Program-made: the position numbers and the translations under genes | DNA from: a virus | Lineage: Duplodnaviria > Heunggongvirae > Uroviricota > Caudoviricetes | Direction: 5' to 3' (one strand) | IMG/VR virus record: IMGVR_UViG_2695420427_000009 | Length of the DNA stretch: 19,124 nt | In this document: one piece after another, positions 3,666 through 10,379 of the stretch | Layout of the letters: every line of letters starts with the position of its first letter | How positions within the stretch are numbered: the stretch's first letter is position 1 | Notes under the pieces: generated by a model | Database searches by the model: none | The model's input: the letters and a program-made list of their open reading frames with translations, nothing else | What the model was told of the DNA's origin: nothing

Positions 3666-3726
3666 ACAGGTGTTTTTATAGTTTGCTTGAACAAACGATC
3701 AGAACATGAACAATGTTATTGTTCCG

Positions 3727-5357: not shown

Positions 5358-5549
5358 TTACTCCCCGTTCACCGAAAAATCACGATAGAAACGTTTCCAC
5401 ATACGATAAGTCTGCGCGAGTTGTTCACCACGAAACATCGCCTTCCTGGCCTTCATGTTTTCCTTGTGAGACTTTCGATCTATGAACCAAAACCATTGCT
5501 GGAACACACAAAGCAAGAGACACAAAGATAATATCCACTGATTACCCAT
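5358..5549 (-). CDS. Putative small single-TM protein (63 aa), possibly coupled to repA
   Basis: In-frame ATG 2 nt after the repA stop codon gives MGNQWILSLCLLLCVFQQWFWFIDRKSHKEN..., a hydrophobic helix plus basic tail; the longer 102-aa form in the ORF track would overlap repA by about 125 nt. Confidence 0.35.
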   Translation of the reverse strand: MGNQWILSLCLLLCVFQQWFWFIDRKSHKENMKARKAMFRGEQLAQTYRMWKRFYRDFSVNGE

Positions 5550-8500
5550 AGAAAGCGCCCTGCTCTTCGTAGCTGCATGGGCTATTCCCGGTAATGTATT
5601 CACGTAACCGCCGCAGTTCATTGCTGGATAAGTGATCCATGAACTCTGTGAGGTACAGAGATGCAAACGTCATAGCTATGCTAGCTGATGACCATGATGA
5701 CATAGTGGCCAGCTCCTCACCGGAAAGCGCACTCATCGCCCAGGACTCAGGTACAACCACTGGCAACACAGCCAAAGCCTCAGAAATTACTGAATGAGGG
5801 GCGTTTTGAACCTGCTCGTTTGTGGATCGCGTTTTATCATCCATATATATATTGAGATCCAAATCGCGATCCATTTCGATGGCGGTCTTCTCGGCTTTAC
5901 GCGTTTTCAGGGTTAGGCCATCTTTCTGACGCTGAGCAAGAATATCCAGCATAAATGCCGCTGATTCAGGCTCAACAAAACGCAAGGTTGGACGCTTATC
6001 GCCGTCTCTGCCGCGACGTTTACCTGTTTTAAGGCCAAGAGAGTCGCAAATGTTTTTAAACAACGCTTCCGGCACTTTAGGCTTCCCTTTTGGCGTCATA
6101 AAACCACCAATGTGCAGAACGTTATTCAACAGGTCACGGCGTTCGGCTGTCATGAGGTTATCTCGAGCAAATTTGAGACGCTCCTGAGTCGCCTCGCCGG
6201 TCATAGTCTCAGGGTTGATACCGCAGTCGATAAAGTACTGCCGGAGAGTTGCTGATTTAAGCGCATAGAAACCGCGCGCCCCGACTTCAACAGTAGGAGT
6301 AGCTTTTACCTTGTGATCGATTATTCCAGGGAATTTAGTTTTAAAGACATCATCAGCCTGCTCGCGAGTCATCGCGGTCACTACAAAATATTGCCACTGT
6401 CCCGCCTGACGGTATGCGTAGGTAAAATTGATGGCTGCTTCTTCCCGGTCGTAACGACGAGCTGTTACCTCATCTAAAAGCATTGTTTCATAGCGGCGAA
6501 CTTTGTCTCGAGCACCATCGAAATAGAATTTCAGCGTGCCTTCTTCAACCGGTAGTTTCAGTTCGTTTTCAATATCCCAGCGGACAAGTTTTGCCTGTTC
6601 TTCAAGCGTCAGCGCGCGTTTTTTTAGCAGTTCTTCACGCTCTGATTCTTGTGGAGTTTCTGTATTGAGATGCAGATCCAGTGTCTGTTCCCACACAATA
6701 TCCCGCGCTTCTTTACGCAGCTCTTTACCGATATCATTCGCAGCATAATCGGTGGCCAGCGGCGATACCTTATAACCGTCGCTGTGCATGATGCAGATCA
6801 TGTTGCTGGCGTAGTCGTTACGCGCAGTCGCTTCAATAGCGGCTGCTTTAATTTTCATCCTGGTAAAGTCGGTATTGGCCACCCCCATTGATATACGGTC
6901 GCCATCGAAAACGACATCCGTCAGTTCACCGTTCATACCTGCGGTAGCAAGCAATGCCTGGGCGAATGCTCGTTCTATTTTTTGCGGGTCAGTTTCACGT
7001 TTTGCACGAGCTTTATCAAAGCCGATAATAAATTCTTTTGCTGTACGGTCGCGGCGTAGCATTTGCACTGCGTCGCTGGGTACAACTTCACCACAGAACA
7101 TGCCGAAATGACGGTCAAAATGTTTTTGCTCAATCGACACGCCGGATGAAATAGACGGGCTATAAATCAGGCCGTCGTATTTTTTGACCATCTTTTTCGG
7201 TTGATTGGTAAATGCTTCAACTTCTGGCTCTGGTTTGTTTTTCTGGTTTACACACAGAAATTTCTTACCAGGAAAATGCATTCTCAGGGTGGCGGTCACA
7301 TCTTCTGCAAAGGTGGAGCTGTCGGTGGCCAACATGATTTTTTCGCCATTCGATACAGCTTTCACCACCTCGGTCATAATGCGATCTTTTTCTGTATAAA
7401 AAACCCGGATTGGCTCACCTGTTTCGCGGTTGCGAACATCAACAGGTAATTCAATTACGTGGATCTGCAGCCATGCCGGTAAACCTAGTTCTTCACGGCG
7501 TTTCATAGCCAGTTCAGCCAGGTCAACCAGCAGATCGTTCGCATCAGCATCCACCATTATTGGGTGTTGTTCCGTTCTGGCCAGCGCGTCAATTAACGTA
7601 TTGAATACAGCCACCGGGTTTTCCATAGCCCGACCGGAAAGAACGGCACGTAGCCCTTGCGTGGCCTCGTCAAAGCCAAAATAGTCGTGCTGGCGCATCA
7701 ATGGTTGCCAGCAGTTTTTAACAATCGAGTTTATGCAGATGGTCAGTTTACTGGCGTATGGAGCCATTTCCTGATAGCCAGGGTCCTGATAGTGCAGGAT
7801 ATCGGCTTTTACACCTTTTCCTTCTGTCATCATTTCCCACAGGCCACCAATAAGGGAAACACGGTGAGCAACAGAGATACCACGTTCTGAGCTATGCATT
7901 AAAGGTCGTAACAATCCAGTAGATTTGCCGGAACCCATACCAGCACGAACGATGACTATCCCCTGTAGTGATTGCACATACTTCAGGACGTCATCGGTCA
8001 TTACCGAAGTTTCAAAACGCTTATAGGTGATATGTTGAGGACGTTTATTGGGATCAGTTATTCGTTCGCTGAATGAGCGCGGAGCCTGGGCAATACGGCA
8101 CTTTTTATTCAGGCGACGGGCAATGTGGTCTTTTACCGTAGCGCGATAGATATTTTCCAGCCCAATTTCACGCAGGGCGATGCAGAACATGTTAAATAAG
8201 TCTGACGGACTGTTAGGAACCGGACAGGTTAGCATGCCAATATCCACTGCTCTCAGCAGCTCTTTGGCAAAAGTACGACGGTTATCCCGCTTAATTGTCT
8301 TCAGGCGGTTGAGCGTCAGAGATAGCAAATCAGTGCCAGTTTTCAGGCGGTTTGCAGTTGCAAACAGTTGACGTGCTGTTTCACGAAGTCCACGTAGTTT
8401 GTGCAGGTCGTTGAAGTCACTGCACTCCATTTGCGGATCGTCTTCAAAAGTTGGATAGACGCAGCGGACATCGTTGAATTTCGATAAGATTTCATAGCCA

Positions 8501-9537
8501 GTCCGCAGGCCGGTATTCCCTTTTCCTTCTGTAGCTGATTTCCGGTCATTATCCAGTGCGCAGGTGATTTTTGCCGCCGGGTACATGTTTACCAGTTGTT
8601 CCACAACATGAACCATGTTGTTAGCGGATACAGCGACAACCACAGCGTCAAAGCGTTTATCTTTTTTCGTGGCAAGCCAGATGGATGCACCAGTAGCAAA
8701 ACCTTCTGTAACAGCGATGTTTTGCGCCCCTTTCAGCTCACCGATAACAAAGCAGGCACCGACGAAATCGCCGCTGGTTACGGCGCTGGTCTGGTATTTT
8801 CCACCTTGTTTGTCGATTCGCTGCCAACCAACAATACGACCATCGTAACGACCGTCCAGGTGAGCCAGAGGGATAGCCATATACGTGGTTGGCCCCCTGC
8901 TCCATTTTGCGCTGTCGTGACTGGTCACGCGACGCACATCACACGAATTAAAAACGTCACGAATACCTTTTTTAATCGCATATGGCCATGAGCCGTCTTC
9001 TGCAGGAGCATGTTCCCAAGCACTGTGGAATGCCAGCCATCCCAGCAAACGTTCATGGTCCATTTGGTTGTTTTTCAGGTCATTAATTCGTTTTTGTTCT
9101 TCACGGCGACGACGTGCTTCGGCCTGACGTTCTATTCTTGCCCGTTCTTCTTCCGGTTGTGCGACCACGGTCGCATTATTCCGTTGTTGCTCACGGCGAT
9201 ATTCAGAAAACAGGAAGGAGAAACCGCTCCATGAGCCAGCATCGCTGCCTTTATGGACGAAGTTAATGAACGGGTAATCAATCCCTTTGCTGTGTTCCAG
9301 CCGGGAGTAAATTTCTACGCGTCCTTTGAGGCTCTTTTCGAGAGCTTCTGGGGATGTTTTATTGTATGAAGAGTAACGCTCAACACCCCCGCGAGGGTTG
9401 AGTTGGATGTTGTCGGAACAGGCAGACCAGTTGATACCAGCCATCTGTGCCAGCTCGGTTAGTTCATCCCGTGCTGCTTCAATTAGCGAGAACGGATCGC
9501 TGCCAAAGCGATCCGCATAGAAATCGTTTAATGTCAT
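5542..9537 (-). CDS. repA: Replication protein RepA, primase-helicase (1331 aa)
   Basis: Size matches N15 RepA (~1320 aa); N-terminal primase-like region with acidic motifs (TEGFATGASI, ALDNDRKS); central Walker A VRAGMGSGKST; located between the ant region and cB as in N15. Confidence 0.9.
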   Translation of the reverse strand: MTLNDFYADRFGSDPFSLIEAARDELTELAQMAGINWSACSDNIQLNPRGGVERYSSYNKTSPEALEKSLKGRVEIYSRLEHSKGIDYPFINFVHKGSDAGSWSGFSFLFSEYRREQQRNNATVVAQPEEERARIERQAEARRRREEQKRINDLKNNQMDHERLLGWLAFHSAWEHAPAEDGSWPYAIKKGIRDVFNSCDVRRVTSHDSAKWSRGPTTYMAIPLAHLDGRYDGRIVGWQRIDKQGGKYQTSAVTSGDFVGACFVIGELKGAQNIAVTEGFATGASIWLATKKDKRFDAVVVAVSANNMVHVVEQLVNMYPAAKITCALDNDRKSATEGKGNTGLRTGYEILSKFNDVRCVYPTFEDDPQMECSDFNDLHKLRGLRETARQLFATANRLKTGTDLLSLTLNRLKTIKRDNRRTFAKELLRAVDIGMLTCPVPNSPSDLFNMFCIALREIGLENIYRATVKDHIARRLNKKCRIAQAPRSFSERITDPNKRPQHITYKRFETSVMTDDVLKYVQSLQGIVIVRAGMGSGKSTGLLRPLMHSSERGISVAHRVSLIGGLWEMMTEGKGVKADILHYQDPGYQEMAPYASKLTICINSIVKNCWQPLMRQHDYFGFDEATQGLRAVLSGRAMENPVAVFNTLIDALARTEQHPIMVDADANDLLVDLAELAMKRREELGLPAWLQIHVIELPVDVRNRETGEPIRVFYTEKDRIMTEVVKAVSNGEKIMLATDSSTFAEDVTATLRMHFPGKKFLCVNQKNKPEPEVEAFTNQPKKMVKKYDGLIYSPSISSGVSIEQKHFDRHFGMFCGEVVPSDAVQMLRRDRTAKEFIIGFDKARAKRETDPQKIERAFAQALLATAGMNGELTDVVFDGDRISMGVANTDFTRMKIKAAAIEATARNDYASNMICIMHSDGYKVSPLATDYAANDIGKELRKEARDIVWEQTLDLHLNTETPQESEREELLKKRALTLEEQAKLVRWDIENELKLPVEEGTLKFYFDGARDKVRRYETMLLDEVTARRYDREEAAINFTYAYRQAGQWQYFVVTAMTREQADDVFKTKFPGIIDHKVKATPTVEVGARGFYALKSATLRQYFIDCGINPETMTGEATQERLKFARDNLMTAERRDLLNNVLHIGGFMTPKGKPKVPEALFKNICDSLGLKTGKRRGRDGDKRPTLRFVEPESAAFMLDILAQRQKDGLTLKTRKAEKTAIEMDRDLDLNIYMDDKTRSTNEQVQNAPHSVISEALAVLPVVVPESWAMSALSGEELATMSSWSSASIAMTFASLYLTEFMDHLSSNELRRLREYITGNSPCSYEEQGAFYG
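5824..5872. other. Origin-like structure inside the 3-prime part of repA: inverted repeat GGATCGCG / CGCGATCC flanking AT-rich CATATATATATT, with three GATC sites
   Basis: Seen directly in sequence; N15 ori is reported to lie within the 3-prime part of repA (established knowledge); exact correspondence not verifiable here. Confidence 0.3.
8916..8929. repeat. Palindrome CGTGAC-tg-GTCACG (copy 2 of palindrome family B), inside repA coding sequence
   Basis: Exact 12-mer GTGACTGGTCAC shared with 14851-14862 and, in opposite orientation, with 3650-3661. Confidence 0.6.
9158..9175. other. SopB-type centromere-like palindrome TGTGCGACC-ac-GGTCGCA (copy 1 of family A), inside repA coding sequence
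   Basis: Arms TGCGACC / GGTCGCA with 2-bp centre; 6 of 7 arm positions match the F-plasmid sopC core TGGGACC-AC-GGTCCCA as I recall it; same element at 11602 and 16589. Confidence 0.6.
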
Positions 9538-9586
9538 TTTTTAGCCATTCCATGCGAATTATGTTTTTTCGGGTTGAAAAAATCCG

Positions 9587-9653
9587 CAGGAGCAGCCACA
9601 ATAAACGCATCTTGAATTGACGGAATCCGTCGCGTTACTGTGGCTGCTTCCTG
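9587..9653. promoter_or_regulatory. Long inverted repeat in the repA leader (CAGGAGCAGCCACA ... TGTGGCTGCTTCCTG, ~14 bp arms, 38-nt spacer containing palindrome GACGGA-a-TCCGTC)
   Basis: Seen in sequence 50-115 bp upstream of the repA start codon; function inferred (leader structure or countertranscript). Confidence 0.35.
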
Positions 9654-9660
9654 AAAAGGA

Positions 9661-9688
9661 CCCGAGTTTGCCGACTCGGGTTTTTTTT
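9661..9688 (+). terminator. Intrinsic terminator on the plus strand (CCCGAGT-ttgccg-ACTCGGG followed by T8), antisense to the repA leader
   Basis: Perfect 7-bp GC-rich stem followed directly by 8 T; there is no plus-strand gene upstream for at least 4 kb, so it would terminate a short antisense transcript or act on the minus strand as a weak cB-repA attenuator. Confidence 0.5.
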
Positions 9689-9782
9689 CGTCTTTTTTCT
9701 GCTGCTGTAACCTGAGTCAACCCACAGAACATATGCTCTGCATTAAACCAGATTTACAGCAAACAATAAACCCCGTATTAAG

Positions 9783-10379
9783 TCATCTACCCTCAACCAT
9801 GAATGATTTGATCGTTCCGACTATTTGGTGAACAAATTCAAGATCGCTTTTCCTGAAGATAGCGCGTTGTGAATTTGTTCCGTCCAGATAGTAATTTTCA
9901 TCATCAAAACGGGCCAGGCGCTGGATGGTGATATTTCCTGCAGTATCACGAACCAGAACATCCTCGCCGGGGACCAGTTCCAGCGCAGAATCGACCAGGA
10001 GAAAATCGCCAGGCTGATAGTTTCCCTGCGCCAGATTGCTGATAGTTAACGCATAAACAGTATTGCGCTGGCTGATGAATGGCAGGAATCGCTCAGTATT
10101 TGGAACCTGTCCTGGCTTCCACTCTTCATCAGGTCCACTTTCAGTTGTGCCAATAACAGGAATGCGATCAGGGTCATATTCTGTCCCATACAGCACCCAA
10201 TGCACTGGCTTGCGTAAGCATTTAGCCAGGGCAATACCTATCTCCAGTGACGGCATTACGTCGCCACGTTCTAAGTTTTGGACGCCTGCAATAGAGATAT
10301 CGACAGCCTCAGCAACTTCTCGCAACGTCAGCTTCATCTCTAAACGGCGTGCTTTCAGTCGTTCGCCTCGTGTTTTCAT
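9783..10379 (-). CDS. cB: Prophage repressor CB (cI-like; N-terminal HTH_XRE, C-terminal S24/LexA-like fold), 198 aa
   Basis: HTH LTLREVAEAVDISIAGVQNLERG at the N-terminus; divergent from the Cro-like gene across an operator-bearing intergenic region; size matches N15 CB. Confidence 0.8.
   Translation of the reverse strand: MKTRGERLKARRLEMKLTLREVAEAVDISIAGVQNLERGDVMPSLEIGIALAKCLRKPVHWVLYGTEYDPDRIPVIGTTESGPDEEWKPGQVPNTERFLPFISQRNTVYALTISNLAQGNYQPGDFLLVDSALELVPGEDVLVRDTAGNITIQRLARFDDENYYLDGTNSQRAIFRKSDLEFVHQIVGTIKSFMVEGR

Follow-up and report, generated by a model that had tools for sequence, protein, structure and literature searches.

The question raised by this locus is how an N15-like phage-plasmid adjusts the supply of its replication protein, and whether a small RNA takes part in this control alongside the prophage repressor. 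The stretch of DNA analysed (hereafter the window) is the 19,124-nucleotide (nt) virus record IMGVR_UViG_2695420427_000009 (Caudoviricetes), in which the 501 bases around the interval between the genes cB and repA show 99.8% identity to Escherichia phage PhiR46_1, and positions 9400-9900 show approximately 80% identity to N15 and phiKO2 and also to Klebsiella and Enterobacter relatives. Judged from its sequence, the window is an N15-like linear plasmid-prophage (phage-plasmid). The interval studied here, 9538-9782, is the exact gap from the repA start to the cB stop, both genes being on the minus strand. In the list of open reading frames (ORFs), repA (5542-9537) encodes a replication protein of 1331 amino acids and cB (9783-10379) encodes the prophage repressor CB of 198 amino acids, which is 78% identical to N15 CB. 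Since the flanking ORFs are repA and CB, the region spans exactly the cB-repA intergenic interval of an N15-type element. The reading that we favour, with moderate confidence, is that this interval constitutes a replication-control module, in which a cis-encoded countertranscript pairs with the repA leader and lowers RepA, alongside the repression exerted by CB at the promoter PL.

This reading is founded on the annotation of the orthologous interval in the N15 immB region (GenBank U45242.1), where the repA ribosome-binding site (RBS), the promoter Pinc, terminators on both strands, the operators OL1 and OL2 and the promoter PL follow one another in this order. In that record, the -35 and -10 hexamers of Pinc are labelled 'Pinc; promoter of putative antisense RNA', the plus strand carries a 'putative terminator of RNA antisense to repA transcript' and the minus strand a 'putative terminator of repA leader transcript', and the CB operators OL1 and OL2 overlap 'PL; putative promoter of repA gene'. 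The stem-loop is also annotated as a rho-independent or 'putative bidirectional' terminator in the N15 genome record (AF064539.1) and in phiKO2, the second wording being that of phiKO2. When the window was aligned with N15, the Pinc hexamers and their spacing, the terminator and the PL hexamers were all identical, in the same order and at the same spacing, and on this comparison the interval is almost certainly orthologous to the Pinc/terminator/PL-OL module of N15. Of the features that define such a module, three were found here, namely the position between cB and repA, a Pinc sequence TTGAAA-17-CACAAT pointing away from repA, and a terminator with T8 on the Pinc strand at approximately 80 nt from the predicted start. 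By its sequence, the interval is thus a further allele of the N15-type module, known in kind yet still putative. What we add to the GenBank annotation is an invariant-variable-invariant pattern of conservation, a catalogue of alleles, a strand-specific fold and the local hyper-divergence of a 45-nt block.

An earlier note on this stretch, made from the letters alone, had read a plus-strand intrinsic terminator with a stem of 7 base pairs (bp) and T8 in the interval, and the terminator scan recovered it at 9661-9688 (stem CCCGAGT/ACTCGGG at 9661-9667 and 9674-9680, loop TTGCCG, T8 at 9681-9688). It is the sole terminator-like site of the scan within 9500-9800, and its 25-mer occurs once in the window and in none of 200 shuffles. 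A sigma-70-like site, which was absent from the earlier note, lies just upstream of the terminator unit on the same strand (9574-9602). It corresponds to Pinc, with the -35 TTGAAA at 9574-9579 and the -10 CACAAT at 9597-9602, the latter inside the left arm of a large inverted repeat. The promoter scan scored this site 9/12 with a 17-nt spacer, its hexamers and spacing are the same in the window, N15 and phiKO2, and the -35 is invariant in 44 distinct sequences. Together, the two signals would delimit an antisense RNA of approximately 80 nt (9609-9688, plus strand), its start being placed about 7 nt past the -10 (±2 nt) and its end at T8. Complementarity to the repA leader, a promoter of its own and an intrinsic terminator, which define a small countertranscript, were thus found at the level of sequence only, and we think it likely that this RNA is actually made. 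The earlier proposal was that the terminator either ends a short RNA antisense to repA or attenuates transcription on the minus strand. Both parts of it agree with the N15 annotation, and it fits the invariance of the promoter and terminator blocks among the 86 loci described below; the minus-strand side of the terminator, however, fails the scan rule in the window.

The comparative set was collected with exact-pattern DNA scans of viral and metagenome contigs and completed with annotated phages, and a protein-seeded search of genome contigs gave 1 locus; it comprises 86 copies, among which 44 interval sequences and 26 alleles of the predicted RNA are distinct. Viral contigs were found 48 times by the terminator pattern and 49 times by the promoter block, the two sets being the same apart from one truncated contig, and the 32 metagenome contigs found by the promoter block carried the same terminator in 32 of 32 cases. 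As each block was recovered through the other, their invariance is not purely a matter of ascertainment. N15, phiKO2 and the 86 loci all have one and the same terminator sequence, save at one truncated end. The sliding diversity computed over 1.4 kb was 0.00 at 9566-9605 (Pinc and the left repeat arm) and 0.01-0.02 at 9660-9697 (terminator), and it reached 0.24-0.35 at 9606-9659, a value equal to that of the most variable coding segments. The variable part is a block of 45 nt (9609-9653), made of the 5' tail of the predicted RNA, a stem-loop hereafter called stem-loop I and the right repeat arm, with a mean pairwise difference of 0.24-0.35 against 0.00-0.02 in the adjoining sequence. The whole Pinc region (9566-9605) is invariant in the 26 alleles, its 17-nt spacer included. 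Because promoter spacers are normally unconstrained, the copy of 9566-9605 in the leader RNA probably has a further role. A conserved block of low diversity (CGTCTTTTTTCTGCTGCTGT, 9689-9708) also follows T8.

The folding of the predicted RNA was compared with that of its exact complement. The RNA 9609-9688 is predicted to fold, at -30.1 kcal/mol (z = -4.0), into a free 5' tail of 13 nt, stem-loop I and the terminator hairpin, and its complement, in which stem-loop I is not formed, reaches -20.7 kcal/mol (z = -2.6). In the minimum free energy (MFE) structures the tail (AUCUUGAAUUGAC, 9609-9621, plus strand) is single-stranded. Stem-loop I (9622-9651, plus strand; GGAA.U.C.CGUCGC / GUGGC.U.G.CUUCC) comes from the MFE fold, and the same architecture was obtained in 25 of the 25 alleles folded, namely an unpaired 5' tail of 11-13 nt, then stem-loop I with its GGA/UCC closure and internal mismatches, and the terminator. 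Stem-loop I was more stable on the plus strand in all of the 26 alleles (mean -11.4 vs -5.2 kcal/mol on the minus strand), and it contains 108 G·U cells against 6 A·C cells, a G·U pair becoming an A·C mismatch on the opposite strand. A covariance model built from seven Klebsiella alleles recovers all copies and matches the window at 9610-9688 on the plus strand (43.6 bits, E = 7.5e-8). In the alignment fitted to this model, 91.8% of the stem-loop I cells are able to pair, or 94.7% for the whole structure with the terminator helix, against at most 47% when the partners were slid. No match at the Rfam gathering level was found in the interval, the best being NsiR1 with 26.4 bits (39 required), on the terminator hairpin only. 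A covariation proof of stem-loop I was sought and dropped, as the measures robust to shared ancestry, the energy z-scores and the swap test were not significant; for this reason stem-loop I is claimed as a predicted fold only, one that is consistently obtained, conserved and specific for the plus strand.

The strand on which the terminator operates bears directly on the choice between an antisense RNA and a simpler function. The minus-strand side of the hairpin passes the scan rule in N15 (CCUUUUUC) and in phiKO2 (CCUUUUUUC), but the minus-strand tail of the window is only UCCUUUUC and fails this rule, which considers the sequence alone, so that the terminator does not qualify as bidirectional here. 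Across alleles, the plus-side T8 is almost constant while the U run of the minus side ranges from 4 to 7, and this difference suggests that the plus-strand function is under stronger constraint than the minus-strand one. The hairpin could nevertheless act as a terminator or attenuator only, halting leftward read-through from cB and PL transcripts before repA in the absence of any functional antisense RNA, the large hairpin being then a stabilising or processing element of the leader mRNA and the plus-strand hexamers being conserved as leader RNA sequence. The N15 and phiKO2 sites, annotated and scanning as bidirectional terminators, are in agreement with such a role, as is the scan, which gave no terminator between the cB stop and the hairpin; furthermore, the invariance of the left-arm block could reflect a role of the leader at the RNA level, and the statistical evidence for stem-loop I is weak. 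However, a terminator working on the minus strand would have no use for T8, which is kept in the window even though the minus-strand tail fails the rule, and the -35 and -10, with their 17-nt spacing, have been preserved at the distance from the terminator that an RNA of approximately 80 nt requires. We therefore regard the terminator-only function as unlikely and retain the countertranscript reading.

The earlier note had also described, in the same interval, an inverted repeat with arms of about 14 bp and an internal palindrome, and both were recovered. The repeat pairs 9591-9604 with 9635-9648 (14 nt, 93% complementary) and, when one mismatch and one bulge are allowed, extends to approximately 22 bp (9587-9608 with 9632-9653), and the inner palindrome, GACGGAATCCGTC, lies at 9619-9631, where it is specific to the window's allele group and would form a small hairpin at the tip of the large one. 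As the plus-strand RNA is predicted to begin downstream of the left arm, the large hairpin (9587-9653), as modelled, is part of the repA leader rather than of the antisense RNA. On the minus strand, its 5' arm (9632-9653) is variable and its 3' arm (9587-9608) invariant. As minus-strand RNA it folds at -37.7 kcal/mol (z = -7.1), a value reached by none of 200 shuffles, and with z-scores of -3.7 to -7.3 in six other alleles it is exceptional in every allele tested; the hairpin persists although one of its arms has diverged by substitutions and bulges. For the leader between PL (~9735) and the repA AUG, the predicted energy is -69.7 kcal/mol (z = -5.5), and both the leader's version of the terminator hairpin and the large hairpin are part of this fold. 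Most of the sequence complementary to the antisense 5' tail is exposed in the apical loop of the large hairpin, AAUUCAAGAU being unpaired in the structure of the window, and on these models the tail (9609-9621) is the candidate recognition element. No strand bias was found for the large hairpin (-32.5 and -33.2 kcal/mol for the plus and minus strands, respectively). Wobble pairs specific for the minus strand were considered as a signature of this hairpin and rejected, since the pattern did not generalise and the minus strand was better in just 14 of the 26 alleles. Within the window's own allele group, several single-base variants of the right arm were observed (GCGTTACTG, GCGTTGTTG, GCGTTATTG and GCTTTACTG).

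The module has to be considered together with the promoter of repA itself. From the lack of the operator string TATAGC in the interval, the earlier note concluded that no CB operator was present, and that repA may be controlled by RNA or by read-through from the cB promoter. The string is indeed absent, but degenerate homologues of the OL operators and PL hexamers identical to those annotated in N15 are present, so that the conclusion about the operators does not follow. The -10 of PL, TTTAAT (ATTAAA on the plus strand), lies at 9742-9747 and its -35, TTTATT (AATAAA on the plus strand), at 9765-9770, both being minus-strand hexamers. The OL1 homologue ATATGCTCTGCATTAA (9731-9746), located where N15 has OL1 (214-229 of U45242.1), keeps the TA-N10-TA arrangement and is a poor match to the consensus, and the OL2 homologue TTACAGCAAACAATAA (9754-9769), at the N15 OL2 position, keeps TA-N10-TA as well, with 3 mismatches to the 16-bp consensus TTATAGCNNGCTATAA. 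Since the OL sites of N15 themselves have approximately 5 and 2 mismatches to the CB operator consensus, those of the window appear one step weaker. Both homologues overlap the identical PL hexamers. Given these hexamers and the OL homologues at orthologous positions, repA very probably has its own CB-sensitive promoter, independent of read-through from cB. The OR operators between cB and cro are also N15-like, OR3 (TTATAGCTGGCTATAA) being identical to that of N15.

Three further observations concern these operators. The OL1 homologue is polymorphic at 9737 within the window's allele group (ATATGCTCTG vs ATATGCCCTG). In the K. aerogenes plasmid NZ_CP014747.1 (locus L086, 640-670), a deletion removes OL2 and the 3' end of cB and leaves Pinc, the 45-nt block and the terminator intact. 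Elsewhere in the window, an operator-like 16-mer, TTATAGTTTGCTTGAA (3676-3691, plus strand), with 3 mismatches to the CB consensus, lies just right of the C4/isrK region, about one such site per window being expected by chance.

The experimental background on copy number concerns CB. In N15 and phiKO2, CB binds OL1 and OL2 upstream of repA and lowers the copy number, and mini-plasmids lacking cB show a higher copy number (PMC4997575, PMC4488713). The T-A-N10-T-A arrangement is common to all CB operators (PMC4997575), and expression of the antirepressor raises the copy number of N15 vectors from ~5 to ~50 (PMC2847241). Control by protein only is one alternative: CB would act at OL/PL, another protein could possibly bind the invariant block or the inverted repeat as DNA, and the RNA structures would be by-products. 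The experiments on N15 and phiKO2 that document OL binding by CB and its influence on copy number (PMC4997575, PMC4488713, PMC2847241) are in favour of this possibility, and the lack of strand bias of the large repeat is what a DNA-level element would give. However, two 22-bp arms with 23-30 variable bp between them are atypical of a protein site, the free variation of one arm by indels and bulges without loss of complementarity is better explained by RNA pairing, and the OL sites of N15 are less degenerate than those of the window. We give little credit to a purely protein-based control and consider CB repression and the countertranscript together.

The analysis established the sequence elements, their orthology with N15, the conservation pattern and the predicted folds; production of the RNA, its inhibitory effect and the step affected are inferred, and the following scheme is proposed. 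Leftward transcription of repA would proceed from PL (from ~9735 downward), which is overlapped by the two degenerate CB operators, and its transcript would begin with a leader of approximately 200 nt holding the terminator hairpin and the very stable hairpin of 22 bp. Pinc, constitutive and directed the opposite way within the leader DNA, would yield the ~80-nt RNA (~9609-9688), ended at T8 and perfectly complementary to the leader. The free 13-nt tail at the 5' end of this RNA would pair first with its complement exposed in the apical loop of the leader hairpin, and the pairing would then zip into a duplex of approximately 80 bp, opening the 5' arm of the leader hairpin and covering the leader's version of the terminator hairpin. 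As a result, less RepA would be made, and this would set copy number and incompatibility in addition to the CB repression of PL.

Several points weigh against this scheme. The -10 of Pinc, CACAAT, matches in only 4 of 6 positions, and promoter-like sites at the threshold of the scan are expected 0.4-0.5 times per 300 bp. The collection relied on exact matches, so that relatives changed in both blocks would have escaped it, and the phage Kpn74, which was found by BLAST, has one substitution in the spacer and T6 for T8. With regard to stem-loop I, the alignment behind the pairing and covariation counts was fitted to the model, and neither of the two covariation measures robust to shared ancestry was significant (changes on both sides 7 vs 5.3, 44/500 shuffles; further pair types 19 vs 17.9, 160/500 shuffles). 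The energy of stem-loop I is also unexceptional (z from +0.5 to -2.8 across alleles and -1.3 in the window), and when 5' and 3' halves were swapped between alleles they folded nearly as well as the cognate ones (P = 0.25). The N15 annotation of the antisense RNA itself reads 'putative', and a literature search that did not cover the primary N15 immB/repA papers found no published test of this RNA. Since CB alone accounts for a copy-number range of approximately 10 fold, the RNA may be a minor control beside it. Lastly, the end of the duplex is 57 nt upstream of the Shine-Dalgarno (SD) sequence and does not overlap the rep RBS, and a switch by RBS occlusion found no support: when the antisense target was forced to be unpaired, the mean unpaired probability of the SD-AUG region went from ~0.6 to ~0.55 in 11 alleles.

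The position of the duplex raises the question of which step would be blocked. The SD of repA, GGAAUGG (9551-9545), and its start codon (9537-9535) are on the minus strand, N15 having its RBS annotated at the same place. Leader-peptide coupling of the R1 tap or IncB repY type was rejected, as the candidate frame has no SD and the frame used changes between alleles; ORFs running from the invariant arm end at -24, -5 or +1 of the repA AUG, yet all three frames stop there. A third candidate, a terminator induced at a run of six U through the pairing of the invariant arm with the sequence right of T8, found no support, its duplex energies standing at a z of about -1.4 relative to shuffled sequences. 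In an attenuation of the pT181/pIP501 type, the RNA bound to the nascent leader would free the invariant 3' arm, which would form an alternative helix at the U6 run (the leader copy of 9577-9582) and cause termination approximately 40 nt before the repA RBS. With the target blocked, the MFE structure of most alleles does pair the invariant arm with GCAGCAGCCGAAAAAAGACG, just upstream of the terminator, in a helix ending 1 nt before U6, and the block right of T8 is conserved. However, 6-24% of the shuffles give a complementarity as good in most alleles, the complementarity is weaker in the allele of the window, whose MFE does not use it, the helix is long-range rather than a local terminator hairpin, and in the free state the large hairpin already lies 4 nt ahead of this U6 run. 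Such attenuation seems to us quite improbable. By elimination of these three models, for which no support was obtained, the cleavage or destabilisation of the duplex, or a refolding of the leader around GCGUUUAUUGUGGCUGCUCCUGCGGAUUUUUU, is favoured; we tentatively propose that the countertranscript acts through the destabilisation or refolding of the leader after duplex formation (e.g., cleavage by RNase III) rather than by direct masking of the RBS.

The variable 45-nt block deserves separate consideration. In N15-like elements whose flanks of 91 nt on the left and 124 nt on the right are 97-100% identical, the block is only 68-75% identical (25 pairs, four alleles), the loci with divergent blocks being L002, L011, L015, L016, L023 and L028, and the converse situation also occurs, with near-identical blocks in different flanks (L009 vs L015). 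The block of the window is 59-69% identical to the other blocks, the value for N15 being 69%. These comparisons point to a localised diversification or to a cassette-like exchange, and the block behaves as expected of a cis-antisense pair, in which any mutation alters both partners at once. Its localised hyper-divergence makes it a plausible determinant of incompatibility. A more specific proposal is that the block determines the specificity of incompatibility and is diversified or exchanged far faster than its surroundings (at least 4 alleles in N15 backgrounds 97-100% identical), and that the frozen leader segment GCGUUUAUUGUGGCUGCUCCUGCGGAUUUUUU is part of an undescribed switch turning a pairing located 57 nt upstream into a loss of RepA; taken as a whole, this proposal is speculative and we hold it to be rather unlikely. 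If it were true, variation in the block would let related phage-plasmids coexist or exclude one another.

As regards its distribution, a 301-base stretch of this region is present in 214 plasmid records, nearly all non-mobilizable, with 176 from Klebsiella and 28 from Escherichia. Among 5426 complete E. coli genomes it was found in 18, always plasmid-borne, and each of the 18 carrier genomes had a single element. In many contigs and records the cB-repA interval is doubled, often in opposite orientation, with a size about twice the usual 46-55 kb (L005/L036, L008/L039, L013/L017, L027/L031, L038/L046, L014, and plasmid records with two places). These doubled intervals are probably head-to-head dimers, or the result of assembly through the hairpin telomeres of the linear plasmids. 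Two ORFs of 57 amino acids cross the interval (9447-9620 on the plus strand and 9559-9732 on the minus strand); they are not conserved in the other alleles and, from their sequences, are very likely spurious.

Clinical Klebsiella and E. coli commonly carry linear phage-plasmids of the N15 type, and N15-type elements underlie linear cloning vectors (PMC2847241). Published work on the control of their copy number deals with the CB repressor only. If the antisense RNA is real, it would constitute a second layer of control and a likely determinant of which elements can share a cell; the catalogue of alleles and the covariance model would then allow incompatibility typing, and the RNA could be added to Rfam, which does not contain it at present. 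As far as the window is concerned, the outcome is chiefly a clean annotation, the interval being explained by homology to the N15 module (U45242.1).

Among the known systems that can be compared with this module, the C4 antisense RNA (RF01695, 3400-3487, minus strand, 82 bits) and isrK (RF01394, 3514-3589, minus strand, 53 bits) were matched in the window at the Rfam gathering level. These belong to the region of N15 anti-immunity, immA, and are likewise small regulatory RNAs of the same phage-plasmid, but they lie at another locus, have another target (the antirepressor operon) and are unrelated to the repA-leader RNA. The OOP RNA of lambda, of approximately 77 nt, overlaps the 3' end of cII and targets the cII mRNA. 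Like the predicted RNA, it is a terminator-ended antisense RNA of a lambdoid immunity-replication region adjoining the replication gene; in contrast, its target is the cII mRNA and not the leader of a replication gene, and it has no sequence similarity to the RNA of the window. As in the pT181 and pIP501 systems, the predicted antisense RNA of the module is the complement of a 5' portion of the rep leader, and this leader has alternative pairings as well as a U run that precedes the RBS, whereas in the window there is no local terminator hairpin exclusive to the bound state and the candidate helix is no better than chance.

The closest relative is the cB-repA interval of N15, approximately 80% identical overall, which has the elements in the same position and order as the window and agrees fully with it in the hexamers and spacing of Pinc, in the terminator hairpin and its T8, in the PL hexamers and in the invariant left arm; the window differs by its 45-nt block (69% identical), its allele-specific palindrome, its weaker OL1 and OL2 and the weaker minus-strand side of its terminator. 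In plasmids, control by countertranscripts is exemplified by CopA-CopT of R1/IncFII and by RNAI of ColE2, R1 having in addition the transcriptional repressor CopB. Unlike these systems, to which it has no sequence relation, the module of the window has no conserved leader peptide of the tap or repY type, its target lies 57 nt before the SD, the recognition would probably be of the 5' tail-to-loop rather than the loop-to-loop kind, and its RNA is a predicted one. It nevertheless resembles them in having a putative small terminator-ended RNA, whose promoter is located inside the rep leader and which is fully complementary to the region upstream of the rep start, in the variable recognition region placed between conserved signals, and in its proposed action beside a repressor, as with CopB in R1.

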